Of a DNA stretch of 64,000 nt, positions 16,701 through 53,514 are shown piece by piece. The notes beneath the pieces are model-generated. The model was given only the letters and a program-made list of their open reading frames with translations, was not told where the DNA came from and did not search any database. Source of the stretch: Geosiphon pyriformis uo1 (taxonomy: Eukaryota > Fungi > Glomeromycota); contig JAAOMT010000226.1 in NCBI GenBank assembly GCA_016748015.1, positions 287,250 through 351,249 of the forward strand, in the 5' to 3' direction. Every line of letters starts with the position of its first letter. Within the stretch, counting starts at the first letter, position 1. Made by a program: the position numbers and the translations under genes.

Positions 16701-17810
16701 TATTCTGTGTTTTTTTATATTATCTTGTGTTATTATGTTTTTGATTATGTTTTTTTATAATTTGAATTTGTTTTTTTACTTGGATAACATTGATGTTTTT
16801 AAAAAAAAAAAATGGCTTTTAATATTAAACTTAGATAGTAGTTATTGACAAATAGCCATAAATTTAGCTGACAAAAAAAACAGTATTTACTATTAGAAAA
16901 AGAAACTTTGAATTTGATGTTATGTTATTTAACTTAACCAATATTCCAGCTATCTTCCAATGGCTTATAAAAATCATATATACTGGATTACTATGAAAAT
17001 CAGTAATAGTCTACTTGAACAACACCAATGTGTTCTTCAAAACATTTGATAACCATTTTCATTATTTTTAACAAGTGTTTGAAAAATTAAGAAGAGTTGA
17101 ATTGAAATTAAATGCAACTAAATGCTTTTTTGACAAAACTAAACTTAAGTTTTTGGAATATATTGTAAGCAAAAACAGCATAAAAACAGATTCAGACAAA
17201 ATTGAAATAGTCAAAAACTTTTTGGTACCAACAAATTTTACAGAATTAAGAGTATTCTTGAGATTTGCTGAATATTATTATCATTTTATTCAAAATTTTT
17301 CCAAATTGGCTCAACTATTTCACCAGTTCTAAGCAAAAAATATCAAATATAAATAAACAAAAACTTAACAAGAAGCTTTTGACATCTTAAAAAGAAAGCT
17401 TATTTAAGCACCAGTATTAATCTATTAATATTACAACAAGCCATTTATTATTACTATTAATGCATCTAGTCAAGCATTGAAGACTGTATTGTCACAAAAA
17501 AAAGCAGATAGACGAAAACATCTAGTGTTATATGTTAGCAAAAGTTTAAGTCCAGCCAAAAAGAACTATAAAACCTCAGCATTAAAATACTTAGCTATAT
17601 ATTAGACTGTTATTAAATAGAAAAAATACTTAAGTCAAAAGTTTGATGTTTATACTAATCACAAAAAATTGACATTAATCCAGAAACAAAAATTTGGAGA
17701 TAATTGTCATACAAGATAGAAAATAGAGTTATTACTATTTAATTATACTGTACATTATAAAAAAGAAAAAAAATAGAAATGTCAACAGTTTGTTATAAAT
17801 AAGAAAATTA
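10733..17810 (+). pseudogene. gag-pol: Element A polyprotein relic (N-extension-Gag-PR-Cys-rich-dUTPase-RT-RNase H), split by solo LTR E
   Basis: PR relic LIFDNSLVNS (~13100), dUTPase relic ORF 14500-14799, RT YLNN (from YLDD) ~17012, RT/RH relics 17075-17800; very many stops. Confidence 0.85.
15762..16789 (-). mobile_element. Solo LTR E (A/B-related family) inserted antisense in the RT of element A
   Basis: Minus-strand termini TGTTATCC...TATAATA; flanks TTAA (15758-61) and TTGA (16790-93) fit a mutated 4-bp TSD (probably TCGA); removing it restores E-L-F-D-(A)-F-(G-G)-K-K-W as in B; shares the GGAACAATAGCTTTTGATCACAGCTATT block with A/B LTRs. Confidence 0.85.
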
Positions 17811-19074
17811 AAAAATATTTTAATTCAAAAATATAACAAAAGATAAACACACAAATATTAACAATTCTAACATTATATTAATACTTAACACTTCAAGGAA
17901 AAATTATCTTAAAAGAAATAAAACAACATAAAACAACAAGCAAAATATCTTATTATTTACCAAGATATATTATATTAAAAAAACAAAAAATACTCAGATC
18001 AACTACTCAGAATAATCACAAAACCAAAAAAAAAACAATACTATTCAACATATACTTAAATTTAATAGTAAGACATTTTTATAAAGAAGCAATCATAAAA
18101 AGAATTAGAAAAAAATACTATTGGCTATTCATATATCCAAATATTATCTAATATATTTAAAATTGTGATGTTTGTCAAAAAAAAAAGAAAGAACAAGACC
18201 TAATAAACCACTAAAACTTATCAAAATAAGACAATCATTTAATCAAATTAAAATTGACTTAGTCAAACTATTAACAATAACCAGTAAAAGCAATAGATAT
18301 ATAGTGGTAGTTATGGACTATCTTACAAAATAGCCAGAAGCAAAAGCAATTCAAAAAGCAGATGCAGAATTTATAGCTAAATTTGTATACTAAAATTTGA
18401 TTTATTAACATAGATGTCCAAAAAAATTATTATCAAACCAGAGAACTTACTTTGTGAACAAAACATTAACAGAATTAAGTCAAAAATTTACAATCAAAAG
18501 ATTATTATTATTACTATATTATTTACAAATTAATAACTTAGTTGAAAGATTCAACAGAACATTGTGTAAAGCAATAGCCAAGATCAGCCAAAAAAACCAG
18601 AACAAATAAGATTTGTTTATACTATTAGTATTATTTACTTATCAGACAATGAAGCAAGATAATATATTAACAATACCATTAGAACTTGTTTATAATAAAA
18701 CAACAATATTACCAGTTAAAATAAATATTAATACATATCCAACTAAACCAATAACAGAAGCCAACTTCAAAAAAACATTATTGAAAAAAACATATAACTT
18801 AATAAAAACATTAAAAAACAAAAGGCAAAAAGCAGTTGATAACATATAAAAATTATAAGCAAAACAAAAAAAATGATATTGTAACTAATTATTAGATAAA
18901 CCAATCGAATTCAGAATTGGAAAAAAAGTATTTTTATATTATACCAAAGTAAAAAAACAATAGAATGGAAAATTAAATTCCAAATAGAACAAACTATTTT
19001 ACATTAAAAAAATTCTAGAAAATAGAGCTTATAAATTAAGATGAAACAACAAAATCTTAGTTAAAACAGCATAT

Positions 19075-27200: not shown

Positions 27201-29915
27201 TTTGATGCAGCATACAACAGTGCTCTCAATAAACTTTACCACTATCCTCATGAGGCTGAAATGATTTTTGACTTAGCAATAACATTGATCAATAGAGCCA
27301 CCCAAAAAGATGTCCACCAAATGAAAGAAGCTAAATACATTGAGTATACCATAGAATTAGCTGAATTTGATTATGAAGATGAAGTAGAAACCTACCACCA
27401 AATTGCAAGCCACATATATCCGACCAAAGAAGCTCAAATTCAATGATTAGAGCAAATGAACATTCAATTGTGTGAAGTATGTGTTATGCCTTGTGATAAC
27501 CAATAGTGTTTAAAATATTATGCTCTTAGCATTTCTCTGCCAGATGAGAATAATGAAAATAAAATCGAATTTGGAGTATTTGAATTAGTAAAAAACTATT
27601 AACCACTCCCATCTATCTTCTTGAAAAGCAACTATCTCTACAACTTAAATATTTTGACAACCATGGCCAAGGAATCAAACCAGAAAAAGCACACGAAATT
27701 GATGCTGGATATGACTTAAGATATCCAGGAAAAAATACTTTGGTTCTCCAATCAAAGTCCTTGACAAAAATCAATCTCAAAATTGCTCTTGAAATTTCAC
27801 CAGAAGCAATGGTTCAAATTGCCTCCAGATCATCATTGGCAAGCAATGGAATCAATATTAAAGGAGGAGTTATAGATGCAGAATACACTGGAGATATTAC
27901 CATCATGTTACAGAATGAAACAGACAAACCATTTAAAATTGAACATGCTGAAAAAATTGCTCAAGCAATTTACTTACCCTTAATCAAAATTTCGGGTTTA
28001 CAATCAGTAAACAACAAAGAACAATTGGGAAAAAGTGAAAGAGGAACTCAAGGTTTTGGTTCAACTGGACGATTTACAGTTTCAGTAAACATAGCTCTTA
28101 ATACACAAAATAAATCTCACCAGATTCTTCAACTTCCCCAGCCAATTACCATTTCATCTTTTGAAGAACATCACAAAATTTACACTTGCTCAAAACCCAT
28201 CACTACACAACAAATCTTTGAATTCAATGAACAAATCTGTTTGAAGCATGAAATCTCAATTCCAAACGTTTATATTCCCAAAGAAATGAAAAAATTTTGA
28301 GTTATATTCTACAACCCCAATAATTACCCTATTGTCTTATTAAACAAACTAGAGATTGGAATCATACACAGCAATATTTTTCAAGATGAAAACCCTCAAA
28401 TTGTCTCTAATTTCATCGAAATTGTAAGGTATACTCTACTCCCAAATCCAAATATCATTCTCACTACTGAAAACTACCATTTTTTGGAAAAAAAACTCTC
28501 TCAAATCAACATGAGTCCTTTAGAACTTCAACAACAAAGACAATTGAAACAATTGATAGCTGAATTTGCAGATATATTTGCAAAGACAACAATGACCTGG
28601 AAAAAACGGATATGGTTCAACATCAGATCCATATAAGAGATACTCCACCAAAACATTAGCAAGCTTACAGAGTGCCATCTGCCAGCCACCAATTCATCAG
28701 AGAAGAAGTCCAGAGAATGCTCAATAACGGATTGATTCAACCATCAAGAAGTCCTTGGGCCTCACCAGTAGTCTTTGTCAAAAAGAAAAATGGAAAAATC
28801 AGATTTTGTGTTGACTATCACCAATTGAACAATATGACAATTGAAGATGCCTATCCTCTTTCAAGAATTGATGACATGCTAGATGCTCTAGGAAAAGCCA
28901 AGTCTTCTCAACTTTAGACTTAGAAAGTGGATACTGGCAAGTTGAAATGAATCCAAAAGACCGACCCAAAACAGCATTCACTACCCAAGAAGGAAACTAT
29001 GAGTTCAATGTTATGTCTTTTGGACTCTGCAATACACCAGCAACATTCCAACGACTTATGGATGTTGTATATGAAGAACTCTTATGGCAATTAGTAGTTG
29101 TTTACCTTGATGATACTGATGTGTATTCACCAAGCTTTGAAGCCCATCTTATTCACCTATGAGAAATTTTTCAATGATTACAGAAAACAGGATTAAAATT
29201 AAACATTGAGAAATGTCACTTTGGAAAAACAAGCTTAATCTTTCTTGAATACATTGTAAGCAAAGATGAAGTCAAACCAAACCCTGGAACAATCAGTGCT
29301 GTCAAAAACTTCTAAACTCCCAAAAATACTACAGAGCTACGAAGATTTGTAGGATTAGCCTCTTACTATTGGAAATTCATCAAAGAATTCTCAAAAATTG
29401 CCAAACCACTCAATTATCTTACCAACAAAAATGTACCATACAAATAGACAGAAGAACAACAGAAAGCTTTTAAAACTCTCAAAACAAGATTGAAAACAGC
29501 CCCAGTTCTTGCATACCCAAACTTCAACAAACAATTTCAACTAGCCACTGATGCTTTACACATAGCATTCAGTGCCATCTTATCACAATTAGATGAAAAT
29601 GGGCAAGAACAAGTCATCGTCTATGCTAGTAGAACACTCAAACCAACAAAACTAAAATACGGCTCAACTAAATTAGAAGCTGCTGCAGTTATTTGAGCTC
29701 TTAAACATTTTTAACAATATCTGAAGAATGGAAAAGAATTTGACATAATAACGGACAACATTGGCCTTAAATGGCTCAATAAAAAGAAAACTGAACAAAG
29801 TGCCAAACAGTCTTGATAGAATGACTTCTTAGCAGATTACAGATATATTGTACACCACAAACCAGGAAAACTACATACCAATGTTGATAGCCTCTCAAGA
29901 ATGAGACAAGATTAA
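24189..29915 (+). pseudogene. gag-pol: Element C polyprotein: N-extension-Gag-PR-Cys-rich-dUTPase-RT-RNase H
   Basis: One frame from the LTR through 27446 (ORFs 24294, 25995 and 27090 share a frame); Zn knuckle CHYCGIPKYWKRDC at 25725; PR ILDNRLAGS; dUTPase; RT YLDD 29103-29114; ends NVDSLSRMRQD* (TAA 29913-15). Confidence 0.93.
27665..28072 (+). other. dut: Trimeric dUTPase domain within Pol of C (also D ~40550-40951, B ~33690-34095, A ~14535-14960)
   Basis: All five motifs present: DAGYDL, ASRSSLA, GGVIDAEYTGDI, EKIAQ, RGTQGFGSTG. Confidence 0.93.
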
Positions 29916-29973
29916 TACCAATAACAAATTCTATCACAACTTACCAACTTACCAACAAAATAACCAAACAAGA

Positions 29974-31358
29974 ATAGATCTCAGAAATTACAGCAATCTT
30001 AAAAATTATTTGGAGACTCTTACTATGCCAGAAAACTGGTTTCTAAGTAAAAAACATTGTTTACAACATCAATCAAAACAATATTTTATACACCAGAACA
30101 AAATCTATTATAAAAATCACAGAAACCCAAACCAACTACTCAGATTAGTACAAGAGAATAAAAAAAAACAATTTTATACAACATGCACACAGATTCATCT
30201 TCAGCACACTTGGGAAGAAATAGAACAATTCAAAGAACCCTTGAATATTATTTTTGGCCTTACATGTAAAAAGACATTTGACAATATGTAGAATCTTGTA
30301 ATAGTTGTCAAAAAAGAAGAGGAACTTGCTTCACAGAACCTTTAAATTCAATCAAAGTTGGACAACTTTTTGACAGAGTTGGAATTAATTTAGTCAGACC
30401 ATTACCTATTACAACCCAAGGAAATTACTATATTGCAGTAGCAGTAAATTATCTTACCAAATGGCCAGAAGCTAGAGTCATCCAAAAAGCAAATGCAAAA
30501 TCAGTAGCAAATTTCATCTATGAAGACATTATTTGTAAACATGGATGTCCAATTGAACTTTTATCTGATCAAGAAACACATTTTGTGAACAACTTGATAC
30601 AAGAAATTTGTGAACAGTTCAATGTCAAAAGACCTCTATTATCACCTTATTACTCTCAAACAAATGGACTTGTAGAACGTTTCAACAAAACATTGTGTGA
30701 ATCTCTAGCCAAAGTCTCAACAGACTTTAAGCAGAAATGAAATATCTTTATTCCATCAGTGTTACTAGCATACAGAATGCTAAAACAAGATACTATGAAA
30801 CACACACCATTTGATTTTACTTATAAAAGGACAGCAACATTACCAATTAATTTCACAGTAGAAACATATCCAGTGCAACCAATCAATGAAGAAATCTTTC
30901 AAGAAACACTCCAAAAAAAGGCCTACACTCTTCTTAGTACACTGGAAGAAAAAAAAAAAATAGCAGCAACTTATATTGAACATTCTTAAGCTCAACAAAA
31001 AGAAAGACATGACAACAAATTACCACCTATTACCAATGAATTTAAAATTGGAAATAAAGTTCTCTTACACAAAACTAAGACAGAAAAACAATGGAGTGAG
31101 AAATTTAAAAACAAATAGGATGGATCATTTTATATTCACGAAATTCTACACAATGAATTATACAAGTTAAGACTTGATGATAAAATACTAGCAAAAGTTG
31201 CACATGAAGACAAATTGAAACACTATCATTCCAGAAACAATCCTGAAACATTAATTCCACAAATTGGTACACATTCTCTTTTAATTAATTCTGAAGATAT
31301 TTCCCGAAATTTAGAACCAATAATTATAATAGAACAACAACCAAACTTGAACACTTAA
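29974..31358 (+). pseudogene. int: Element C integrase, separate ORF (start ATG eroded to ATA)
   Basis: HHCC (MHTD..AHL...SCNSCQ), LSDQETHF, NGLVERFN, GPF-like module; no chromodomain. Confidence 0.9.
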
Positions 31359-33157: not shown

Positions 33158-36100
33158 ACAAAGACAAGATCTAGCAGATGGCAAATGCCAAAGTAGAAGA
33201 TGCTATGCCCAGTGAAATATTAGACATCAAGAACCAGTTAACATTGTTCTGATTTCCAATCCAGATGTTTTTCTGGATCTGGAAACTGGCCCAGAAGAAT
33301 TTTATGAACACTATCAAAATTTGACACCAACTAAAGAAAAACAGGAACAGCATGTGGAAAAAATAAACACCCAATTATGTGACCACTGTTTAATCCCATG
33401 TGACTTCCAGTATTGTAATGAGTGTGACTTCATCTACAATCCATGACCATGTATAATTTACACAAATCCAGAGGAAAACAAGCCAATTAACAACTGTGTA
33501 TTAGAATCAGAATCAATTTTCAATCCCAATTCAAACTTTGACAATGATAATAACAAAAACAATAGTTTCAGCTCTGCTCAAAATGACAATGGAGATAACA
33601 ACAATTTAAACTCTAATTCAAATTCTGAAACATTTATCGCACTTTTTAATCTCACCAAGGAACAAGAACTTAAATGGTTTAGTAATAATAACAAAGATAT
33701 TATGCCAGAATGGGTGCATAATACCAATGCAGAGTTTGATTTGAGATATTCAGAGAAGGATGCCATCAAATTGGAACCATATTTGCACACATGCATTGAT
33801 CTCAAAGTAGCATTAGAAATCCCAGCAACAACAATAATTCAATTAGTATTTAAGAGTAGTTTAGGGAAAAAAGAAATTAACATTAAAGAAAGAATAATTG
33901 ATGCAAGATATGTAGAAAATATTATTGCAATGCTACAAAATGATTTAGAAAAGACTATGTCATAGAGCCAAATGAAAAGATAGCACAGGCAATATTCCTG
34001 CCTCTGGTTAAAATAGCTCAATTAGTATCAGTAGAAAACAGAAAAGAATTAGGGATTACAGCTAAAGAAATACAGAGATTCAGATTCACAGATAGAATAG
34101 ATATACCAGTCAATATGACAGAGAAAGAGGCTATTGACAAAGAAGAAATTATCTTCACCCATCAACCAATTTCCATTTCATCATATGACTAGTATATGAT
34201 AACTATAGAGAAAAAAGTGAAGGATCAAGTTCAAATATTTGAGGCAGAAGCACAACTTTGTAAATTAGGAGAGATTGGATTAATTAATCTACACATACCA
34301 GCCAAGAATCATAGTCACATTAAAATTTTTATTTACAACAACACGGAAAACATCATGGAGATATCAGAAGAAACTACCATTGGATACTTAACCATTGAAA
34401 TTAAAGAACAACAACCAAATCTTATTCCAAACTTTTCACAATTGTGTAGATATGTGGATATTACATCACAAACAATATATGGACAAGAAAAATATTATCT
34501 GCTCCAATCAGAACAATTAGAACAAATAAACTTGGGAAACTTAGACCCACTACAACATATTCAACTTAAAATGCTACTCAACAATTTCAATAATATCTTT
34601 ACCAGTAAAAACAAATTTGTTAGAATTGACATCATCCAATATCAAATTAAGCCTGGAGATGCAATGCCAATTAAACAGTAAGCATACAGAGTACTACCAG
34701 TTAGCCATAAAATCATTCGTCAAAAAATCAATCAAATGCTTGACAATGGGCTAATTCAGCCATTAATGAGCCCATGGTCATCACCAGTGATACTAGTCCA
34801 TAAGAAAATTGGGAAAATTTGCTTTTGTGTAGATTACTGGAAACTGAATGGAGTGACCAAAGGAGATAGCTATCCAACTCCAAAGATCCAAGAATTGTTC
34901 AATGCTTTTGGAGGAAAGAAATGATTTTTGACACTAAATTTAGACAGCAGTTATTGGCAAGTAGCCATAAAACCAGAAGACAAAGAGAAAACAGCTTTTA
35001 CAACTTGGGAAAGAAACTTTGAATTTGAAGTAATACCATTTGGCTTAACGAATACTTCAGCCACTTTTTAGTGACTTATAGAAATTGTTTATACTGGGTT
35101 ACTATGAAAATCAGTAGTCATATACTTGAATAACACCAATGTGTTCTCAAAAACATTTAATAATCATCTGTATTATCTTCAACAAGTGTTTGAAAGACTA
35201 AAAAGAGCCAAATTAAAGCTAAATGCAATTAAATATTTCTTTGAAAAGACTAAACTCAAGTTTTTGGGACATGTAATGAGCAAAAATGGAATCAAAACAG
35301 ATCCAGACAAGATTGAGATTGTTAAAAACTTTCTAATACCAAATAATCTCACAGAACTAAGAACATTCTTGGGATTTGCTAGATACTACTGCCACTTTAT
35401 CAAGAATTTTTCTAAAATAGCTCAACCACTACACCAACTCCAAACAAAAAACACCAAATATGAATGGACATAAATTCAGCAAGAAGCTTTTGATACATTA
35501 AGAAGAAAGCTTATTTAAGCTTCAGTACTAATTTATTCAGATCATAGCAAGCCATTCATAATCATAACTGATACATCTGGCCAAGCATTGGGAGCAGTAT
35601 TATCTCAGAAATGACCAGACAGACAAGAACATCCAGTAACATATGCCAGTAGAAGCTTAAGTCCAACTGAAAAAAACTATGAAACTCCAGCACTGAAACA
35701 CTTAGCTATCTATTGGGCTGTCACCAAATAGAAAAAATACTTGAGTCAAAAGTTTGATGTATACACCAATCACAAAGAATTGACTTCAATCCAGAAACAA
35801 GAGTTTGCAGATGATTGCCATGCCAAATAGAAAATAGAACTTTCATTATTTAATTATATAGTACATTATAAAAAGGGAAAAGAAAACAGAAATGCTGACA
35901 GATTGTCACGAATGAGACAAATCTAAAAACATTTCAACCCAAAAATATAACAAAAGATGAATATACAAAAATACCAACAACTTCAACATTATATAAATAT
36001 TCAATTGTTTAAAGAGAAATTATCTCAAAAGGAACAATACAACATAAAACAACAATCAAAATATTTTATCAACCACCAAAATATACTTTACCAAAAAAAT

Positions 36101-36452
36101 AGAAAGAATTCAGATCAACCAATTAGAGTAATCACAAAACTAGAGAAAAAAACAATATTATTCAACATGCACTCAGATTCAACAACAAGACATTTTCATA
36201 AAAAAGTAATCATAGAAAGAACTAGGAAAAGATACTATTGGCCATCAATATATCCAGACATCATCCAATATGTGCAAAATTGTGATGCTTGTCAGAGAAA
36301 AGAAGGAACAAGATCCAATGAACTATTAAGACCAATTAAAGTGGAATAACCATTTAATCATATTGGAATTGACTTAGTTGGACCATTATCAATTACCAGT
36401 AGAGGCAACAGATATATTGCAGTAGCCATAGACTATTTCACTAAATGGCCAG

Positions 36453-37164
36453 TGTTACCAGATAAAATTAGAGATATTATTTAGCATAAAATTATCTTTA
36501 TAATCTCTATTATTAATTAGCATATATTATTATTTCAAATTATCACTTATTACATTAGCAAAATGTCCAAAATTATCATTTAATTAATAATTCAATTTGC
36601 ACATAACATAAATGTAACCTAATTGTAATGATCAATCATGCAATACCCCGAACTATATAACATTCAAAAAACCAAATTCTTTAAATTATTGCACTTAGAA
36701 AATTTTCAAAACTCAACTAATGTTTTGAAATTAATTAGCTACCAATTTCAATAAACTGTTAGTGACTCCAGACCTGGATCAAAAACAATTTCCTTGACAG
36801 AATTCAATTTTTTTTTACATTTCTTTTATTTTTCTTTTATTTTCTTATCATAATTATTAAAGTAACCTACAGACAAGATTCCTGTAAAAGAGTTGACTTT
36901 CACAGCAAAGTAACTATATATTTTTAGTGAGCTTCCAGACAAGCAATTCCTGAGAAAGAGTTAACATTTACTACAATGTAACTACACAAAACAACTGGCA
37001 TGGAAATGGCCATTCCACTTATAAGCCCAGCAGTTCAAATTATAGAAGATAATTTGAAGATAAAATTCAGTTATCGGAGGTTCAAACACTTCCCATAATC
37101 ATGAATTAACAGCATTACAACAAACATACAAGAGCTAAGAAGAGACCAAAAACCTCTGGTAACA
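36453..37164 (+). repeat. Element D 5' LTR (712 bp; ~270-bp internal deletion)
   Basis: Matches 45038-46019 except for the segment between two ATTCAAAAA copies (45247 and 45518). Confidence 0.93.
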
Positions 37165-40100
37165 TTTAGTACTCTCCCACAGAAACAACACAGCAAAAAC
37201 AACTTCAAAGTGGTGACCACACCAGACACAACAACTCTAGAGTATTACCAGTCAATTTACACCCACTGTAAGCAAAGATTCAACATTCCAGACGGAATTG
37301 AAGTTGTCAAGGAATCAGTATACCAATACATTGAAAACCACATCAACAATTATCTTTTTGGAAATTACAATATCTCAGAAGTTAGAAGCAATCTTTACAA
37401 TAATTTAGTACACTATTCACAGTTGGAAACTGAAGACCTTAACAGTAAAACACTTGCCACTTACTTTCAAGAACTTAATTTTAACATTATCAAGTACTGT
37501 GAAGAAACATATCCAGTGCAGTCTCAATACTCTATTGATTTTGAATCAGAGACAAAAACAAGCAACAAAGACAAACAAAAATTGAAGCAATACTCAAAAA
37601 CCACCCCAAATACTTCAATACTACCAAAAACAACTGCCAAACACTTACAAACATCTGAACAAAGAACCAGTTCAAAACTTCCACTTACTATCACACCTTT
37701 TCCAGCTTTACTTGTACAAGCACAAACACTTAATTCACCCTTAAATCAATTTGCAAGACTAGAAGATTTTACATCATCCAGAAGTCCCACCAGACAACAA
37801 AAACCCCTTCAAACTAGTTCCAATCTCCTTAACTTTCTAGCTAAAAATCGAAGTGAACACTCTGAAACAGCAGTGAACAAAGAAAATGACTCTAAAATAT
37901 TTAAAGAAGAATCAATAGACAGTGAAAATGAAGAAGACGAAATAACAGCATACATCGCAAAAATCTCTGAATTTAATGGAGAAGACATTGAGACCAGTCT
38001 CCAAAAATAGCTTGACCAAGTTACTAAAGCTGGAGATGCAAATTGATGAAATGCTGCTAGAATGTTAAGAACAATTCCCTACTTTCTCAAAAGAACAGCA
38101 GATGAATGGTTTGAAAACTTGACCACCCCTTTTAATGACTGGACAGCTTTTAAAACTGCCTTCTTAGAACAATTCACCAATAACAACACCTCAATCACAC
38201 TTCGAAATTGTTTTCACAATATTAAACAAAAACCCTCAGAAACTGTCATAACTTATATTGAGAAATTCAACAAACTTCTCAAACAAATTTGCCAACTTGA
38301 AACTAATGATTATTATTCTGATGCTTAAATCTTGGATCAATTTATCACTGGTTTAAAGGATAAACTGATTAAAAAAGTTTGTCCACATGCTCCAGAAGAT
38401 TTAAACTCTGCCATTCAGCATGCAAAGAGATATGAAATGGCCATGGAAGAAGCCAATCATACAAAACTCATGAACTTAGCCATTGGAGAGACCAGCTCAG
38501 CAGCTGAAGAGAAAATTGACCAGCTCACAAAGAAAGTCAAAAACTATTTCACCAACCAACAACAACAGCAACCCCAAAGATATCAACCACCCCAAAGATA
38601 AAATCAAAACAACTTTGTATCATCCTCTAATAACCAGTCTCAGAATTGCTATGACTGTAGAATCTTTGGCCACTGGAAAAGAGATTGCAAAAAGCTACAA
38701 CAAGACCAACAAAACAGGAGTAATCAACGTTACTCTTCGCCACAACAATCTTATTACCAATTACCACTATCACCAGCTTACTATTTACCAAGACTGCAAT
38801 ATTAAACTGACTACTATCAACCTGCTCCACAGCCAATGCAACAACAGTATCGACAACCCATTCAACATTACCAAGTATCTGCTTGAAAATTGGTTCAACA
38901 AAACCAATTTGCACCACAAAACTGATTTGTAACAAACAACAACAGAATCAACCCAAATAACCAATTAGTTCCCTGAAATCCAGCTCAGCCAAGACCCACC
39001 TATTATCATACTCAACCTAGCTATCTTACAATACCTGAAAAACAGGATTTTCACTATACTGCACTCTTAAAAGGTAGAGCTACAGCATAACAACAAAACC
39101 CTTTCTATACTCCTATCACAATCCCACCAGCCAGAATTGCTGAAAATGCCAATCTTTTAGATATATTCCTTTTTGAGTTCGAAGCAAATGAGTCATCATT
39201 TCTGCTTAGCAATGCAGCCGCCAATGAACAAAAAGCAATTACTGCTATATACACTGAAACAGAAGTCGAAGAAAAGGCAATTCACTTGATCTTAGACAGT
39301 GAATCCGCTGGAAACATTATCACCTACCAGTTAATGCAACAGTTAAAGAGAAATGTTGACTGACTAGCTCAAACAGTAATTGTTACTGCCAATGGCATAA
39401 AAAAGACTCCAGTAGAAGAAATTGACAATTTTCTATTCACTCTTGATGGAATCATCATTCCAGTCAAAGTTCTTGTAATGGATGTGCCCTAGTATCAAGC
39501 CTTGGGAAATCCAAGAATTACAACTCTCCTATTAAAAACAATATGCCTAAGTACCCACTACTTGTGGTATATTCAACAAATGATCAGAAAAAGCCCCTGT
39601 CTTCGAATTTGAAGAAGAGAAAGAAAAGCCTGTAGTCAAAACATTTATGGCACTTGAATTAATATTTAACTGGGCTGAAGAAACTGAGCAAATGTATTTT
39701 ACAACAAACTCATATTCAGAGGAACCAGAAACCCCTGGATAGAACATCCCATATTTTAAACCAGAACCAAAAAAATGACATCCTTACATTCCGCTCAAAT
39801 GCAAGGACTGTCACAAAAAACTCTTCTCAATGGGAGCCTGTATTTCACCTGAAGAAGAATATGAAAATTATACTTGTTATTACTGCAAGACTTGCTACAG
39901 AGAATGATAGGGCCATCTAATAAAAAGAAGTGGAAAATAGGACAACACCCCTTGTTTGACTTGTGGAGATATGCTACCAGAAGAATGCAATTGGATTAAT
40001 GTAGCAATGAGAGGAGGAGTCTGCAATTAAATCTGCCAATATGCTTTATCAATTTCAGAAAAAGTCAAAAGAGAAACACCTTTTGATGCAGCATACAACA

Positions 40101-42793
40101 ATGCTCTCAACAAACTTTATCACTACCCCCATAATGCTGAGATGATTTTCGACCTAAAAATGGCATTAGTTAATGGAGCTACCAAAAAAAATGTTCGTCA
40201 AATGAAAGAAGCAGAATACATTGAATACACCATGGAATTAGCTGAATTCAATTATGAAAATGAAATAGAAGTGTATCATCAAATCACAAGTCACACCTAC
40301 CTGACTAAAGAAGCTCAAGCTCAATGGCTAGAACAAATGAACATTAAATTATGTAAGGAATGCATAATGTCTTGTAATAAACAATGGTGTTCTGAATGCT
40401 ATGCTCTTAGCATTCTCTTGCTCAGCAAAAGTAATAAATACAAAATTGAATTTGGAGAACCTGAAGCAACAGAAAAAATTGAAACAACACCCATCTATCT
40501 CATTGAAAATCAGCCTGTTTTACAACTCAAATACTTTAACAACAACGGACAAGGAATAAAACCCGAAAAAGCACATGAAATTGATGCTGGATATGATCTA
40601 AAATATCCAAACAAGGATACTCTCATTCTCAAACCCAAATCTTTCACAAAAATCAACCTCAAAATTGCTCTCGAAATCCTGCCAGGAGTAATAGTTCAAA
40701 TCGCCTCCCAGTTCTCTCTGGCAAGCAAAGAAATCAATGTCAGAGGAGGAATAATTGATGCTGGATATACTGGTGACATAACAGTAATACTCCAAAACGA
40801 AACTGACAAGCCATTTAAGATTAAACATGCCGAGAAAATTGCCCAAGCCATTTATTTATCCTTAATCAACATTTTGGGTTTACAATTAGTTAATCAAAGA
40901 GAACTATTGGGAAAAAGTAAAAGAGAAACCCAAGGTTTTGGTTCAACTGGATGATTCACAGTTCCAGTAAATATAGCCCTCAACAAACAGAAAGAATCTC
41001 ACCAGATTTTTTGACTTCCACAACCAATTACTATTTCACTCTTTGGAGAATACCCTAAAATTTACACTTGTAAAAAGCCAACAACCACACAACAAATTTT
41101 TGAGTCCAATGAACAAATCTGCTTGGAACATAATATCTTGATCTCAAACATTTATATTCTAGAAGGAACAAAGAAAATCCGAGTTACTTTTTACAATTCC
41201 AACAATTTCTTTATAGTTTTATTAAATAACTTAGAAATTGGAGTTATTCACAGTAATATCTTTCAACAAAAATTACCTCAAACAGTCCCCAATTTCTCTG
41301 AAATTATTGGACATTTACTACTAAAAATCAACCCAAACCCCAGCTCTGAAAACTACCATGTTGTTATAAAAAAACTATCTCAAATCAACATAGGACAACT
41401 TGAACCACAACAACAGAGCCAGCTCAAAGAGCTAATTGCAGAATTTGCAGATATTTTTGCTGAAAACAACAATGACTTAGGAAGAACTGATTTGGTCTAA
41501 CACCAAATCTATATAAGAGATACCAAACCAAGGCGACAGCAAGCCTACTGAGTTACTCCAGAAAGCCACCAATTTATCTGCAAAAAAGTACAACAGATGC
41601 TCAACAATGGACTTATCCAACCATTAATGAGTCTATGGGCCTCACCTATGGTCTTAATTAAAAAGAAAAATGGAAAGATACAATTTTGTGTTGATTATTG
41701 ACAACTCAACAGTGTCACTATTGAAAATGCCTATCTTTTTCTCCGAATTGATGATATGTTAGATGCCCTTGGAAAGGCCAAATACTTTTCAACACTAGAT
41801 CTAGAAAGCGGATACTGGCAAGTTGCCATGGACCTCAAAGATTGTTCTAAAACAGCCTTCACAACCCAAGGAGGAAACTACAAATTCAATGTAATGCCTT
41901 TCGAATTATGCAATGCACCAGCAACATTTCAGAGATTAATGGATATTGTGTACAAAGAACTTCTTTGAAAGTCAGTAGTCATTTATCTTGATGATACTGA
42001 TGTTTATTCTCCATCATTTGAATTACACTTAAAACACCTGCAAAAAGTTTTTCAATAATTACAAAAAGCAGAACTGAAACTCAACATCAAAAAATGCTAC
42101 TTTGAAAAAACAAGCTTGGCCTTTCTTGGTCACATCATTAGTAAAGATAGAATCAAACTGGACTCTGGAAAAATCAGTGCTGTCAAAAACTTCAAAACTC
42201 CTCAAAACACTACAGAACTAAGAGAATTCATAGGGTTAGCCTCCTACTATCGGAAGTTTATTAAAAGATTCTCAGAAATTGCAAAATCTCTCAACCAGCT
42301 TACTACCAAAAATGTCAAATACAAATGGACTGCTGAACACCAAAACGCATTTGAAATCTTCAAAGAAAAACTAATGACAGCTCCAATTTTTGCCTACCCA
42401 GATTTCAGCAACCGATTTCGGTTAGCAACAGATGCCTCTTATACTGCCTTTGGTGTCATTCTATCACAGTTAGATGACAATGGAAATGAGCAAGTAATTG
42501 TTTATGCTAGCAGAACATTGAAACCAGCCAAAAAGAACTACCCTGCAACAGAATTAGAAACTGCAGCAGTAATCTGGGCCCTACATCACTTCAACCTTTA
42601 CCTCAGACCCAAAGAATTCGATATTATTACTGATAATATTGGACTCAAATGGCTTCAGAACAAAAACACTCAGCTAAACGCAAAATAAATCTGATGGACA
42701 GGATTTCTAGCTAACTACCAATATATTGTACACCACAAATCAGAAAAACTCTACACCAACGTTGATTGTCTCTCAAGAATGAGGCAAGATTAG
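37105..42793 (+). pseudogene. gag-pol: Element D polyprotein (~1,900 codons reconstructed)
   Basis: One frame to ~39500, a ~44-nt deletion at the end of PR, then one frame through ORFs 40142, 41123, 41756 and 42116; PR ILDSESAGN; dUTPase; YLDD 41984-95; ends NVDCLSRMRQD* (TAG 42791-93). Confidence 0.93.
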
Positions 42794-42839
42794 AATACAA
42801 AACCAACACTCATTTGAATTAACAACAAAACAACAAACA

Positions 42840-44224
42840 ATGAACCCCGAAAACTACAACAATCTTAAACAATATTTGGAGACATTAACAATCCCAACAG
42901 ATTGGTTCTCAGATAAAAAACATCAGTTACAACAACAAGCCAAACAATACTTCTTACACAACAACATGATTTATTATCAAAACTTCAGAAACCCAAACAA
43001 TCCACTCAGATTAATACAAGAACATGAAAAAGAAACTATTTTATATAACATGCACTCAAACTCTTCATTAGCACACCTAGAAAAAGACAGCACCACCCAG
43101 AGAACACTAGAATATTATTTTTGGCCTCAAATGAGAAAAGACATTCATAAATACATTAAGTCTTGTAATAGTTGTCAAAGAAAAGGAGGAACTCATCCTA
43201 CAGAACTTTTAAACCCAATCAAAGTTGGACAGCTTTTTAACCAAGTTGATATCAATTTAGTCAGACCACTTCCTATCATAAACCAAGGAAACTATTATAT
43301 TGCAGTAGCTGTAGACTATTTTACCAAATGGCCTGAAGTCCGAGCCATTCAATGAGCAGATGCGAAATCAGTAGCAAACTTCATCTACAAAGACATCATT
43401 TGTAGACATAGATGTCCAATAAAACTTTTATCTGATCAAGGAACACATTTTGTGAACAATTTAATCCAGAAAATTTGTGGATGATTTAATGTTAAGAGAC
43501 CATTATCTTTACCCTACCATTCATAAACAAATAGATTTGTAGAATGTTTTAACAAAACATTGTGTGAATCATTAGCCAAAGTCTCAACCGATTTTGAGCA
43601 AGAATGGGATCTCTTTATTCCATTAGTGTTACTAGCATATAGAACACTAAAACAAGATACCATAAAACACACACTATTTGATTTAACTTACGGAAGAACA
43701 GCAATGTTACCAATTAGTTTCACAGTGGAAACATACTCAGCACAACCAATTAATAAAAACAATTTCCAGAAAACATTTCAACAAAGAGCCTACACTCTGC
43801 TTAGCACGTTGGAAGGAAAACAACAAATAGCAGCCACTCATATTGAACACTCCTAAGCTCAACAAAAAGAATAGCATAACAACAAATTGTCTCCAATTAC
43901 TAATGAATTTAAGTTGGAAACAAAGTTCTCTTACACAGAACTAAAGCTGAAAAACAATGGAGTGGAAAATTTGAAAATAAATAGGATAGACCATTCTTTA
44001 TTCATGAAGTTCTAGGCAATGGATCATACAAGCTAAGACTTGATAACAAAATCTTAGCAAAAGTTGCACATGGAGATTGTTTGAAACACTATAATTCCAA
44101 AAACAATCCTGAACCATTAATTCCACAAATTGGTACACATTCTCCTTTAATCAATCCTGAAAATATTCTCTGAAATTTAGAACCAATAGTTGTCATTAAA
44201 CAACCTCCCAACTTGAACACTTAA
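42840..44224 (+). pseudogene. int: Element D integrase, separate ORF with its own ATG
   Basis: MNPENYNNLKQYL...MHSN..AHL...SCNSCQ; DYFTKWPE; LSDQGTHF; GPY/F-type tail; frame differs from RT-RH. Confidence 0.92.
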
Positions 44225-44349
44225 CTTAAATTTATTATTATAGTTATCTTCTTATAATTTAGAAACAATCTTACAAAAACAAAGCAAAAATAACATAAAA
44301 AAAACCCATACACCAAAAATAATTTTCTTTTATTTTCAAATCTTTTATA

Positions 44350-45069
44350 ATGACTATTTCTCAAAATATTCAATAAATATCTCAAAAATTAATGCTAGCT
44401 TTAAAAACAATACTCGAATTATCTATCACTATTACAGAAAAACATATTAATTATACCCAAACAAAAATAGTTACCAATTTAGTCCCAAATTCACGAAAAT
44501 ATCACCCATATAAGAAGAATGCAAGAATTTATTCTGGAATTCACCTGCCAGAACTTTTAAAGCTTGCTTTAAGAGAAAACTTAATGCTCACTTCTATTAG
44601 TATTTCACCAAATGCTACTATTCAACAAAAACTTTAACTGTATCTTAACGAAAAAAACTACAACTATACTCCAATATATAGATATTTCTACATTGGAAAA
44701 ACACTTTACGAATGAAAATGAGAGCTTACAGCAGCAAATCTCACAAAAGAAGCTATTCAAAAACAACTCCACAATGAATTCAAAACAACAGCTAGATTTA
44801 CAAACAGTTATTATAAACTAAGAACTACTCTTAAACTTTATGACCTATTTCACATCTGTGAAAACGTCCTACAAAACCCAATTTTACAATCTTTGAAGAT
44901 TCAATACATTGGAAAGCTTATAGAACTGAAATTTCAACAATTTTCAGACCAAATTTCTTCAATAATTTTAGATTATTATCTGGAAATTACAGACAGTACT
45001 TGGACTTTAATGGAGCTTAGTCTTGAGGAAGAGGTTATGTTACCAGACAAAATTAGAGATATTATTTAG
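44350..45069 (+). pseudogene. Element D ORF3 (~239 aa), overlapping the PPT and start of the 3' LTR
   Basis: MTISQNIQ*ISQKLMLALK...YFYIGKTLYE...KLYDLF...IGKLIELKFQQF...LEEEVMLPDKIRDII*; collinear with ORF3 of C. Confidence 0.85.
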
Positions 45070-46019
45070 CATGAAATTATCTTTATAATCTCTATCATTA
45101 ATTAGCATATATTATCGTTTTAAATTATTACTTATTACATTAGCAAAATGTCCAAAATTATTATTTAATTAATAACCCAATTTGCACATAACATAAATGT
45201 AACCTAATTGTGATGATCAATCATGCAATACCCTGAACTATGTAACATTCAAAAAGTTTGCCAAAATTTGTAAAAATTTGCCGAAATAATTGATAGTTCA
45301 CTGAAATATCTAATAGTTCGCAGAAATAACTTGTAATTCACTGAAATGTATCTTTAGTTTAGCAAAATTGTAGAAAATAGCAAAGTTCAAGTTCATAGAA
45401 TAGTGTTACAACAAGTTGTATAAAAGTAGAGCTTTTTTCTTCGAAAAAATGTATCTTACTTCAGATTTAACAATTAGAATCATTTTTTATACACAAAAAC
45501 AAAATAGATATCAAATAATTCAAAAACCAAATTTTTTAAATTATTGCACTTAAAAAATTTTCAAAACCCAACTAACATTTTGAAATTGATTAGCTACCAA
45601 TTTCAATAAACTGTTAGTGACTCCAGACCTGGATTGAAAACAATTTCTTTGACAGAATTCAATTTTCTTTTACATTTCTTTTATTTTTCTTTTATTTTTT
45701 TATCATAATCATTAGGGTAACCTACAGACAAAATTTCTGTAGAAGAGTTGACTTTCACAGCAAAGTAATTAAATATTTTTAGTGAGCTTTCAAACGAGCA
45801 ATTCTTGGGAAAGAGTTGACATTTACTACAATGTAACTACACAAAGCAACTGGCATGGAATTGGCCATTCCACTTATAAGCCCAGCAGTTCAAATTATAG
45901 GAGATAATTTGAAGATAAAATTCAGTTATTGAAGATTCAAACACTTTCCATAGTCGTGAATTAACAGCATTACAACAAACATACAAGAGCTAAAAAGAGA
46001 CCAAAAACTTTTGGTAACA
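45038..46019 (+). repeat. Element D 3' LTR (982 bp, complete)
   Basis: TGTTACC...GGTAACA; TATAAAA ~45419. Confidence 0.95.
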
Positions 46020-46942
46020 CCAGAAACAAAAGCCATTTAAAGAGCAGATGCAAAATCTATTGCCAAATTTGTTCATCAAGATTTGATATATCGACATAGA
46101 TGTTTAAAAAAACTATTATCAGATCAAGAAACTCACTTTGTGAATAGAATATTAGCAGAATTAAGTCAAAGATTTGGAATAAAAAGACCATTATCATTAC
46201 CATACCATTTACAAACAAATGGGCCAGTTGAAAAGTTTAACAGAATATTGTATGAAGCCATTACCAAAATCAGCCAAGAAAACCAGGACAAATAGAATTT
46301 GGTTATATCATCAGTATTATTTGCTTATTGAACAATAAAGCAAGACACTACACAAGCAACACTATTTAAACTAGTATATGGTAGAACAGCAACATTACCA
46401 GTTAAAATAGAAGTCAAAACAGATCCAACAAAACCAATAACAAAAGAGAATTTCTAAAGAACATTGTTGAAAAGAACATATGACTTAATGGAAACACTAG
46501 AAAACAAATAGTGAAAAGCAGCTAATAATATCCGAAAGGCACAAGAGAAACAAAAAAAAGACATGATAACCAACTACCAGATAAACCAGTTGAATTCAAG
46601 ATTGAAGACAAAGTACTTTTGTATCATACCAAAGCGGAAAAACAATAAAGTAGAAAATTTGACACCAAATAGGATGGACCATTTCACATAGAAGAAAGTC
46701 TTAGAAATAGAGCTTATAAATTAAGATGGAACAACAAAATCTTAATCAAAGCAGCACTTAGTGATCAACTAAAACCATATCATCATATAATATTACTATC
46801 TACCAGTAATATTCTACAATTAGGAGTACAAAGAATACTAGTCCAACCAGATGAGATTCCATGAGATCTGGAACCAATCATAATCATTGGACCAAACACA
46901 TAAAATTAAACAATAAAAAGAAGATATAAAGACATAGTAAAC

Positions 46943-50699: not shown

Positions 50700-52880
50700 T
50701 TATTTTTATTATATTTTATAAGTAAAATTCAAATATTATCTAATATAATACATCAAACTAAGTAATTTAAACTAAATATAAATTATGTATTTTTTTATAT
50801 AAGATTAATCACTTGGATTAATTAAAACAATATTATATATTTATACAGAAACTAATTTTTTAATACTTAAGAAAAAAAAATATATTTATATATACTAAAA
50901 CTAATTTTGAATGCTTTAATAATTTTAAGCAGCATAATTATACTACTAGATAACACAAACAAAAAATTATTAACAATAACAAGTCTAATCTTATTATATA
51001 AAATTAAATCTTTTTTTTATAAAAATTTAAAATAAACAAGCCAAATATTTAGCTTATATATTAATTCTAAATTATGCACAAAATTTACAAATTTTTTATT
51101 AGTAGTTTTAGTATTCTTAAAAACAAATAAAAACTTATAAAGCTAATTTTTAAAAACAAAATTTTTATATAAAGCAATATATATAATAATATTAAATAAA
51201 CATAAAAAAAGCAGTTAAAACACACATAATAATAATCTGTATAAATTAAATTCAGTTTTTAAATAGTTATATATATTTTAAATATGTTTTTATATGTTTC
51301 AACATTTATTTTACATAAAAAAAGTGGTTTAAAAATTCAATTTTATTATATTAAAAATACAAAGTATAATAATAATATTTATTATACAAATATTTACAGA
51401 TAACTATAAACAATTGATAATACAAGATTTTCATAAAATAAAAATATGTATTAATTATAACTTTGCTTATAAAACCAGTTGTTTTATAAAAATTAGATTC
51501 AATCAATATTTCTAATTAAATTAATATTTAAAATCTTAACAACAGACTTAATTTTTTAATAAATACAATAAACTACTTAAAAAATTTTATGAATAAAATA
51601 TTTTGAATTTTTTATTATAACCAAATAATTAATTATAATAAACTTTTTTCAAACATAGATCAAAAATACTGTATTTAAAAATAAAACAGTACTAACCAAA
51701 AAATTAGTTTTTTTATTGTTTAAAATACCAAAATAACTTTTAACTTTATATTAATTAATATATAGATTTTTTTTTAATAATATTTAAAATATGCTGTCAT
51801 TTAATTTAATAATAATTATAAAAGTTTAACAAAACTAATACCAATTTTAAAGAACATATATTCAAAACTATTTAGCTGTTAAAAAATATTTTAATTATAT
51901 AAAAAATAAAAATACATTATAATACTAATATAATAATCTGTAATTTAGCTATTATAAAAAAAATCAAACCAATTACTTTGATATTTATACTTAAATTCAG
52001 ATTTTTAAAAAATACTATAATACTAGTTTTCATATTAGTAATATTCAAATTGCTTAAAAAACCACCAATATAAATAAACAAATAAATTATATAAATATCA
52101 AGCAACTAATTACAAATCAAACTAAATTCAACCAAATTTAATATATTTAAAAACTGAAAATTAATAGTTAAAAATAAGTCAATATTATAAAAAATTAAAC
52201 TGTTTAAAAACTTAGTTGCCAAAATAAACTACTTAAAAATTAAGTCTTGAGAGTTTAATTTTTTTTAATATATAAAAGTTTTCTAGCTAAAAACATTTTT
52301 ATTTTTGTTATGTAATTGTTTAATAAAAACAATATTAAACTATTTAAGTAAATAAAACATTTTTAAAAAAGTTAAGTTATCTAAAACTATTAACATTAGA
52401 GTTTTACTTAAAAATCAAAATACAGAACACAAAAAGTTAACCAAAAACAAATTACAACCATGAAAAATTTTAATCATATTAATCAAAAAATTGTTAATAA
52501 AGTTGATATTAAAACAAACCAAAAAACATGTAAAAAAAAACCCAATTTAAAATTTGAAAATTCAAAGATCTATAATTAAACAGTTAGTTCAAAATATTAT
52601 TAATATTAAAAAAATTCAATAATAAAGTCAATTTGTATTTAATTTGTATCTGTTTAAAAAATTTTAAGCTATGTAAAAAAAGTAATAGATTATATTACTT
52701 AAAAAATCTAAAAACAAACTAGATTTTAATTTTAAATTCTTTCAAATCAAAGTATTTTATTTATTGTACATACTAATTAAAATAAAGTTCAACTAAGTCC
52801 TATAACTAATGATAAAATATAAAATTACTAAAACAAAATAAAAAAATTATTTATTTAAAATAAATTTTCTTAATATTATA
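50700..52880 (-). mobile_element. 5'-truncated LINE fragment (post-RT region, RNase H, C-terminus, 3' UTR)
   Basis: ORF 51917-52105 LFIYIGGFLSNL...IAKLQIIILVL parallels the RNase H relic of the + strand LINE (~58705-58860); the reverse complement of 50700-50990 aligns with 59830-60120. Confidence 0.75.
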
Positions 52881-53514
52881 TATTATATTATCAAATAAAA
52901 TAATAACAAATTATAAATTAACAAATAAATAAAGCTATTTTTATTAATTAAATTATATTTAAATAAATTAATTTTTATTTAAATTTATATAATTATATTT
53001 TATTATAAAAATTAATAAATAAAGTATATATAAAATTAATTAGTTTTAATATACAAATATAATATTATCAAAAATAATTTGTTTTTTATATTAATTTTTA
53101 AAAACAAATTTTTGCTTAATATTATATATAAAGAGTTATTAAAAACTCTAAATAATACTACTTAAAAAACTAAAAAAAATACAATATAATAATTAAATGA
53201 AAAAATTTTTATATTTATTTAAGTATTAAATAATTTAATTAAATATTTATATTATTAATATACAAAATACATAATTTGAAAATTTGATCTTATTATAGTA
53301 AATATATAAAACATTAAATAAAATTTGTTGTATAATTTTTTTTAATTATTATTAACAACTTTTTATAAATTGTTTTTATTATATATTTACTTATAAAATC
53401 TATTATATGTAAATTAAAATAAAAAATTTTTTCTTTTGTTAATCTTTTGGCCATAATAAAAGCATAAAATTATCGAAAAAATAGCTTTTCTTTCCTTCTT
53501 TTTTTTTTGTTATA

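Follow-up and report, generated by a model that had tools for sequence, protein, structure and literature searches.

A 64,000-nucleotide stretch of the genome of Geosiphon pyriformis (contig JAAOMT010000226.1, positions 287,250 to 351,249 of the forward strand; hereafter the window) contains a stack of four decayed long terminal repeat (LTR) retrotransposons at bases 9800-50300. As revealed by self-comparison, element A holds B, and B in turn holds both C and D. Element D (36453-46019) is inserted inside the integrase gene of B, which resumes at 46020. The order of parts in these elements is gag, protease, dUTPase, reverse transcriptase (RT), RNase H (RH), integrase (IN), a further open stretch and LTR. 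A and B are ~77% alike and C and D 76-80% alike, so that the four copies represent two families. This study concerns the junction between RNase H and integrase, where the integrase forms an open reading frame (ORF) of its own behind a stop codon. The coordinates of all window features are collected in Table 1.

In copies B, C and D, the RT-RH frame ends in LSRMRQ(D/I) followed directly by a stop, and the integrase begins 30, 58 and 46 nt further on, respectively. In D, the stop is a TAG (42791-42793) and the integrase starts with the ATG at 42840, in the +1 frame. An earlier note, made from the letters of the window, had claimed this arrangement, and our rereading bore out the common position of the stop, the three spacer lengths and the out-of-frame integrase in C and D. 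The stop and the separate integrase frame are thus confirmed for the window. That each spacer leads to an ATG holds for B and D, whereas the start position reads ATA in C (29974) and in A (~17843). The spacers had also been described as unstructured A/C runs. Those of the window are indeed A/C-rich and weakly folding (minimum free energy 0 to -5.7 kcal/mol for the 63 nt up to the ATG), and the D spacer has 83% A+C, a value reached by 116 of 7755 46-nt windows of the element body (body 61% A+C). The spacers of related elements, however, contain 42-80% A+C and several are T-rich, which rules out CAA richness as a conserved signal. A second in-frame TAA common to A and B carries little weight as evidence since these copies belong to one family and count as one case, in an AT-rich spacer. 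Indeed, the window as a whole provides only two independent cases, because A/B and C/D are two families. Every window copy is moreover decayed: D has 7 stops in 432 RT-RH codons and 5 stops in 362 IN codons, and stops together with one frame change have inactivated its integrase. Because of these many stops, the window alone cannot exclude decay. The idea that a shared position plus a frame change argues against random decay could therefore not be decided on the dead copies; it was the relatives that excluded chance.

Related elements were collected from metagenomes, where 80 of 564 candidate stretches were analyzed; all locus counts below cover these 80 (loci are numbered with L, proteins with P). 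Aligning the RH-IN junction across copies, as had been proposed, was done on these relatives and showed that a separate IN ORF is clade-wide. RT-RH and IN were split in all 14 loci called in-clade that have both on one contig (L001, L002, L006, L009, L011-L016, L019, L022, L027 and L049), and additionally in two divergent loci, L037 and L071. In these 16 loci the stop falls after RNase H or its C-terminal extension, and the ATG lies at the first column of the integrase profile or at a shorter N-terminus. The IN frame relative to Pol is 0, +1 and +2 in 4, 4 and 8 loci, respectively, the gap from stop to ATG ranges from -11 to 727 nt, and both frames are unbroken in at least 9 of the 16. Two loci are full-length with terminal repeats, namely L011 (139 nt at 100%, possibly an assembly overlap) and L015 (435 nt at 96.8%). 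Because intact relatives with integrases 40-50% identical have the same boundary, the split reflects design rather than decay.

We also compared proteins from both sides of the junction. On the Pol side, the RT-RH of the intact locus L011 was used as query, with lengths up to 1455 residues, and 120 listed matches were examined. Among the matches listed with at least 54% identity, 95 of 102 lack an integrase and 80 of 102 end within 25 residues past the last RNase H motif. Three of the seven with an integrase are Rhizophagus clarus gene models that lack the last RNase H motif; of the remaining four, two were included in the IN tree and fall outside the clade. On the integrase side, the D integrase returned 120 listed matches of 199-634 residues, most of them 400-440 residues long with integrase domains only; two are Rhizophagus irregularis proteins. 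Since fused forms are invisible to this search, longer proteins were searched separately, and this second search found its best fused matches in fungal gene models, a single metagenome protein (P0127) and elements that are more distant. In an alignment of 56 full-length integrases, Met1 never varies, and neither do the zinc-finger H2C2 and the D-D-E residues. These 56 sequences, which form profile A1, were hand-picked for full length from the 120 listed matches, and as gene callers force a Met, Met1 was rechecked on DNA. In the viral contigs searched, no clade member was found.

Counter-evidence of the kind named beforehand, young copies that lack the stop or keep the integrase joined in frame, failed to appear in 16 of 16 loci with DNA context. 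The protein P0127, which comes without DNA context, does have RT-RH, IN and the following ORF3 (see below) fused in one frame. It is nested in the split clade (100/97 and 99/94), beside L014 and L011, both of the overlap type. The split is thus not universal; by its place in the tree, P0127 is likely a re-fusion. Taken together, we are highly confident that the integrase is a separate gene by design of a clade. The integrases of L037 and L071 are 34-35% identical to the query and lie outside the core clade, with many stand-alone integrases without DNA context alongside. This suggests that the split design is older or has arisen more than once. In an approximately unbiased (AU) test, the core plus L037 and L071 as one clade received a p-AU of 0.22.

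Clues to how a separate integrase would be made come from the surroundings of its start codon. For 17 of 25 IN starts, the preceding 60 nt contain no ATG, compared to 10.0 expected from shuffles (p 0.004) and to 32% of 130 internal Met codons, and a purine is found at position -3 in 21 of 25 IN starts versus 79 of 132 internal Met codons (p 0.009); as the loci are related, these p-values overstate independence, which tempers the support they give to the route proposed below. An ATG-free stretch of 60 nt also precedes 9 of the 11 starts of ORFs downstream of IN. Stop and start overlap at 6 of 20 IN junctions (TAATG in L011 and L028, ATGA in L010, ATGnnTRA in L012 and L022, and ATG-n5-TAA in L014). 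Where extra ORFs lie between pol and IN, they are chained by overlaps (L012, and L010 with ATGA on both sides) or by short gaps (L002). From this context, the IN starts look like genuine scanning-type starts.

We propose, at about an even chance, that the integrase is made by reinitiation on a polycistronic RNA. Translation of Pol would stop after RNase H at the pol stop, and post-termination ribosomes would stay on the full-length, polycistronic element RNA. The short, ATG-free and weakly folded spacers and the stop/start overlaps would then let these ribosomes reach the IN ATG, where they would restart in the frame of the integrase, this being the next ATG. As a guess, integrase made on genomic RNA might associate in cis with this RNA, with Gag or with Pol, and such binding might bring it into the particle without a Gag-Pol fusion. 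The forms TAATG, ATGA and ATG-n-stop are listed for coupled termination-reinitiation, fungal victoriviruses and hypoviruses use overlapping stop-start sites, and the LINE-1 spacer is 63 nt (PMC5972666). If each ORF had a separate promoter, the chained overlaps of the extra ORFs would not be required. Gag-Pol likely still forms, but without integrase, because the upstream junctions look recoded. TTTAAAT and TTTAAAC are found before the gag stop in L011 (near 3140) and L013 (near 735), and TGA-CTA follows the protease ORF in L002 (870-875), L015 (3358-3363) and L022 (1585-1590). We take TTTAAAY and TGA-CTA to be candidate -1 frameshift and read-through sites, respectively, which are placed differently among lineages. 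Different clade members may use different routes of integrase expression.

Several further points weigh against reinitiation, a route that is deduced from sequence. Once a long ORF has been translated, restarting usually depends on a special element or factor (PMC5972666), and no such helper was identified. Searches of Pfam, PDB and BFVD gave no significant match for ORF3, and UGGGA, the core of the termination upstream ribosome-binding site (TURBS), is absent upstream of the stop in 9 of 10 close junctions, the one occurrence being at an IN to ORF3 junction. The window gaps of 30-58 nt exceed the usual coupled stop-start distance (PMC5972666). The depletion of ATG in short spacers (1 versus 8.2 expected, p 0.003) relies on a length cut chosen after the data had been seen. 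Long spacers are not ATG-poor (12 versus 10.8 expected in the 727 nt of L015, 7 versus 7.8 in L002 and 3 versus 4.7 in L037), and it is their last 82-151 nt that lack ATGs, a pattern more readily explained by an internal RNA start. An out-of-frame ATG lies 16 nt upstream of the IN start in L019, while a 51-codon ORF shared by L016 (393-548) and L049 (778-933) lies between pol and IN, extending 28 nt beyond the ATG of the latter. Finally, an ATG-free leader with good start context is predicted equally by a subgenomic mRNA.

In one form of this alternative, an internal promoter, located in the spacer or where pol ends, would provide the integrase with a shorter mRNA of its own, so that a nested set of RNAs ending in the 3' LTR is formed. 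We regard this as a serious possibility, albeit on balance an unlikely one. It would explain why the 80-150 nt immediately preceding the IN start contain no ATG even where the spacer is long and ATG-rich (L002, L015 and L037). Judged by eye, the spacers of L001 and L006 and the IN-ORF3 gaps of L009 and L026 are pyrimidine-rich or have TATATA-like runs, and foamy viruses do have an internal promoter (PMC12789967). An internal promoter leaves unexplained, however, the 6 of 20 overlaps and the chained ORFs of L010 and L012, where promoters would sit in upstream coding sequence. No common promoter motif was seen by eye, no motif search having been run.

Alternatively, the integrase could come from a spliced subgenomic RNA with the 5' leader joined to an acceptor before the IN ATG, in the manner of env, which we consider improbable. 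The env of Gypsy itself is made by splicing. For retroviruses, splicing is the usual route for downstream genes (PMC12789967). A YAG is present within 60 nt before the IN ATG in 12 of 20 loci, but their positions vary between -8 and -57, no branch site is paired with them and the other 8 loci have none; several spacers, including those of window D, L006 and L019, even lack any AG after the stop codon.

It is very doubtful that an RT-RH-IN polyprotein is rebuilt by a stop-removing intron, by frameshifting or by read-through of the stop. Five annotated fungal gene models (P0123, P0124, P0125, P0246 and P0255) do join RT-RH to IN, the upstream junctions of the same elements look recoded, the two frames agree in L006, L013 and L071, with a single stop between them, and the open frames of window C and D overlap by 8 nt. 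Yet the joins differ in position among the three models that were read completely, and the last RNase H motif, N-A/V-D-x-L-S-R, is missing from all five, a sign that their introns are predictions; these Cetraspora and Rhizophagus clarus models are likely annotation artefacts. Tests for splicing to fusion and for frameshifting at the RH-IN junction were both negative. Of 47 candidate GT[AG]-YAG joins, 12 give an open, in-frame reading (chance ~one third), and a strong donor occurs in only 1 of 19 junctions. Nor can a simple frameshift join the two proteins in 9 of the 12 out-of-frame loci, where the open frames of Pol and IN have no overlap. A fusion would also leave the fixed Met and the ATG-free leader unexplained.

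The spacer itself might act as an internal ribosome entry site, since unstructured A-rich entry sites exist in yeast and the window spacers are A/C-rich and weakly folding; the lack of conserved composition or length and the six junctions without any spacer make this a scarcely credible option. Decay in dead copies, to which the many stops in every window copy and the loss of the ATG in two might point, is refuted by the intact loci L011, L015, L009, L013 and others, and its probability is negligible.

A conserved ORF3 of ~140 residues follows IN in most elements (L001:2284-2715, L004, L005, L009, L015 and others). It often runs to the edge of the 3' LTR, and its junction behind IN is of the same kind as the pol-IN junction. 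The predicted fold is a confident all-helical domain (pLDDT 93). Pfam has no family for it, and Foldseek searches of PDB and BFVD gave nothing at E 0.001 or better; that ORF3 might be a transactivator like the TAV of caulimoviruses is a guess. In D, the open stretch at 44722-45069 matches the position of ORF3 in relatives; its comparison with the ORF3 profile was not significant (hhalign E 0.088, probability 0.7%), and homology is at most suggestive. Other genes vary among the elements. L010 has a 238-residue ORF (521-1237) with a restriction-endonuclease-like domain (Pfam Mrr_cat_2, E 5e-9) directly before IN, joined by ATGA overlaps on both sides. A dUTPase lies 5' of RT in three window copies (40562-40951, 27584-28300 and 33447-33965), with a weak match in B, and is also present in the relatives P0312, P0341 and P0345, while NUDIX is found in the Pol of P0257, P0265, P0267 and P0339. 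In L009 (3497-4441, 314 residues) and L015 (4945-6705, 586 residues), Pol runs on past RNase H without a Pfam match.

A full-text literature search, in which subscription journals were thinly covered and Repbase was not included, yielded no description of a Gypsy clade whose IN is separate from Pol; Repbase family entries with three ORFs may exist. LTR retrotransposons generally encode one or two proteins, with IN inside Pol (Kojima 2025, PMC12440569). The Troyka elements were considered as an earlier description of the split elements and rejected, as they have mostly a single Gag-Pol with IN (PMC12440569). With Ty3/Gypsy (Metaviridae), specifically the YPYY group near Athila/Tat (PMC2836005), the elements share TG...CA LTRs, the 4-bp duplication, a CCHC Gag, an H2C2-DDE integrase and the order Gag-PR-RT-RH-IN (in the window and in L009, L011 and L015, PR being the protease). 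The name YPYY follows the description in that paper. They differ in that IN is not the last Pol domain (a usual, not a defining trait), IN and ORF3 being separate genes, and in the dUTPase or NUDIX domains, or additional ORFs ahead of IN, that occur in some lineages. In trees that contain few named references and neither a Copia nor a BEL outgroup, the RT and IN cluster with Gypsy-type sequences, and Pfam Ty3_capsid, RT_RNaseH and Integrase_H2C2 were matched in the window and in relatives. Ginger1, GIN1 and GIN2 likewise have a free-standing Gypsy-type integrase; the N-terminal integrase of Ginger1, with its YPYY-type segment, H2C2, DDE and GPY/F, corresponds to that of the split elements. Ginger1 also makes 4-bp duplications (PMC2836005), mostly of CCGG, as compared to CCAG and ACAA here (2 of 2 of this length, in decayed DNA). 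Ginger1 lacks RT and is bounded by terminal inverted repeats of 40-270 bp, whereas the split elements have direct repeats at their ends and an adjacent RT-RH; the C-terminal Ulp1, OTU or PHD of Ginger1 is absent from the split integrases of L011 and L015 and from the Pfam lists of the IN matches.

With respect to expression, systems with coupled termination-reinitiation (Cryphonectria hypovirus 1 (CHV1), victoriviruses, influenza B M1/BM2, SART1 and LINE-1 ORF2; PMC5972666) resemble the split elements in a second long ORF that follows a long one, with an overlap in some members and a short spacer in others. They are unlike them in the distance, which here spans -11 to 727 nt in one clade, in the TURBS core missing from 9 of 10 junctions, and in that the downstream protein is here an integrase. 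Caulimoviruses have, to our knowledge, no integrase. Cauliflower mosaic virus (CaMV) is similar in having a polycistronic retroelement RNA with several tightly spaced or overlapping ORFs and a conserved last gene, and its TAV acts over a few to 700 nt (PMC5972666), a range like that of the split elements; ORF3 had no significant structural match in the PDB or BFVD search. Foamy viruses, too, deliver their enzymes to the particle other than by the usual Gag-Pol fusion, as they express Pol separately. The whole Pol including IN is one protein there, whereas here IN alone is split from RT-RH. Gag motifs are needed for Pol incorporation in foamy viruses (PMC12789967). Gmr1-like elements are Gypsy elements with a rearranged integrase as well, but their IN lies before RT, in a long open frame where this was followed.

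In all three IN trees the window integrase groups with the split loci, short of full support: 0.99 in the first, from which the 56 lowest-scoring fused integrases and rows covering too little of the profile were left out, and 87/97 and 86/93 in the two further ones. These two and the RT tree are hand-picked subsets (54, 57 and 60 rows). A larger group (99/99 in the 57-row tree) contains the clade, other stand-alone integrases, L037, L071, five Ginger1-like sequences, plant Athila/Tat-type integrases (labels that reflect our reading of the matches) and a few fused ones in an unresolved fork. The Ginger1-like rows were named by architecture (IN plus Ulp1 or PHD: P0190, P0391 and P0434), the tree being without a named Ginger1 or GIN1 sequence, and the five form their own clade (100/99), with the split integrases alongside in the fork. 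The likeness to Ginger/GIN integrases that the earlier note had pointed out therefore stands as to the shared superclade and the identical start position, although the split integrases are not nested in the Ginger1-like clade. P0190, P0391 and P0434 start at or just before the same M-D/E-x-x-x-Y-x-x-L position as the split integrases, profile A1 covering P0434 from position 1 and P0391 from residue 23. Judged from these sequences, an origin of Ginger1 from a split element is allowed. A Gmr1-like affinity, which had also been considered, was rejected, as Gmr1-type loci, a label that we assigned by domain order, lie outside the superclade in all three IN trees. A swap of IN into a foreign RT lineage was also considered; the RT tree keeps the split elements by the same fused relatives in an unresolved fork and gives no sign of it. 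The split elements formed one group in 0 of 200 bootstrap RT trees, a result that a single origin could still accommodate.

Within the window, the Pfam gag and protease matches sit on the sister copies B and C and none on D itself. The sequence after the 5' LTR of D reads TTTAGTACTCTCC, with no TGG start, at the place where a tRNA primer-binding site would lie. No tRNA gene was found in the window. The target-site duplication of element C is ACAA. Diverged inverted repeats of 1-1.4 kb (~64%) pair 51482-52881 with 57895-59297 and 57025-57995 with 61054-61916, in the very AT-rich right part of the window. The D integrase matches two Geosiphon pyriformis gene models at 80% and 71% over part of the integrase. 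The window family is very abundant in the DNA contigs of host sequencing runs (3871 X1 contigs on 901 bases). None of 40 differences among the X1-X3 DNA contigs falls on the stop or the ATG; a further 75 were not viewed, and these data were not used as evidence.

Table 1. Features of the nested elements, in window coordinates.
Feature	Position	Strand	Basis or remark
Nested element stack A-D	9802-50289		self-comparison
Left target-site duplication of D, CCAG, 4 bp	36449..36452	+	directly 5' of TGTTACCAG at 36453
5' LTR of D, TGTTACCA...TGGTAACA	36453..37164	+	92-94% to 45038-46019, in two pieces
D gag region, decayed; CCHC knuckle ~38660-38700, protease remnant ~39280	37105..39560, edges approximate	+	three-frame translation
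D dUTPase domain, 5' of RT	40562..40951	+	Pfam PF00692, E 1.6e-18
D RT-RNase H, decayed, 7 internal stops, C-terminus LSRMRQD	41495..42790	+	
D pol stop TAG, directly after RNase H	42791..42793	+	genuine by relatives' Pol ends
D spacer, 46 nt, ATG-free, G-poor, weakly folding; sets IN in +1 frame	42794..42839	+	
D stand-alone integrase, own ATG in context caaacaATGaac; H2C2, DDE core, C-terminal domain	42840..44173	+	
D open stretch at ORF3 place of relatives, running into 3' LTR	44722..45069	+	
3' LTR of D, ~260 nt longer than 5' LTR	45038..46019	+	
Right target-site duplication of D, CCAG	46020..46023	+	directly 3' of TGGTAACA at 46019
Copy B junction: TAA 35924-35926, 30-nt spacer with second in-frame TAA, ATG 35957, same frame	35924..35959	+	
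Copy C junction: TAA 29913-29915, 58-nt spacer, frame +1, start decayed to ATA (29974)	29913..29976	+	
Copy A junction: heavily decayed sister of B, start position ATA (~17843)	17809..17845	+	

LTR elements make up 41.2% of the Geosiphon genome (PMC11952901). What the present analysis adds is a Ty3/Gypsy organisation with a stand-alone integrase gene, whose route of expression we infer. LTR retrotransposons and retroviruses normally bring integrase to the particle as the tail of Pol, so that a clade with the split needs another way of translation and packaging. The range of junctions from -11 to 727 nt, the chained ORFs and the probably re-fused relative provide natural material for its study. 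For annotation, the gene models of related fungi that bridge the pol stop cut part of RNase H and look like errors. A more far-reaching picture, in which a widespread polycistronic lineage uses distance-tolerant reinitiation, possibly helped by ORF3, packages its integrase without fusion to Pol and provides, with its free integrase gene, the intermediate that gave rise to Ginger1 DNA transposons and the GIN genes, is in our estimation rather unlikely as a whole. Bao et al. (2010; PMC2836005) placed Ginger1 near Athila/Tat and left its ancestor open. For the question of how a Gypsy integrase became the free Ginger1 transposase, an integrase gene with its own start at the same position would be a plausible step.

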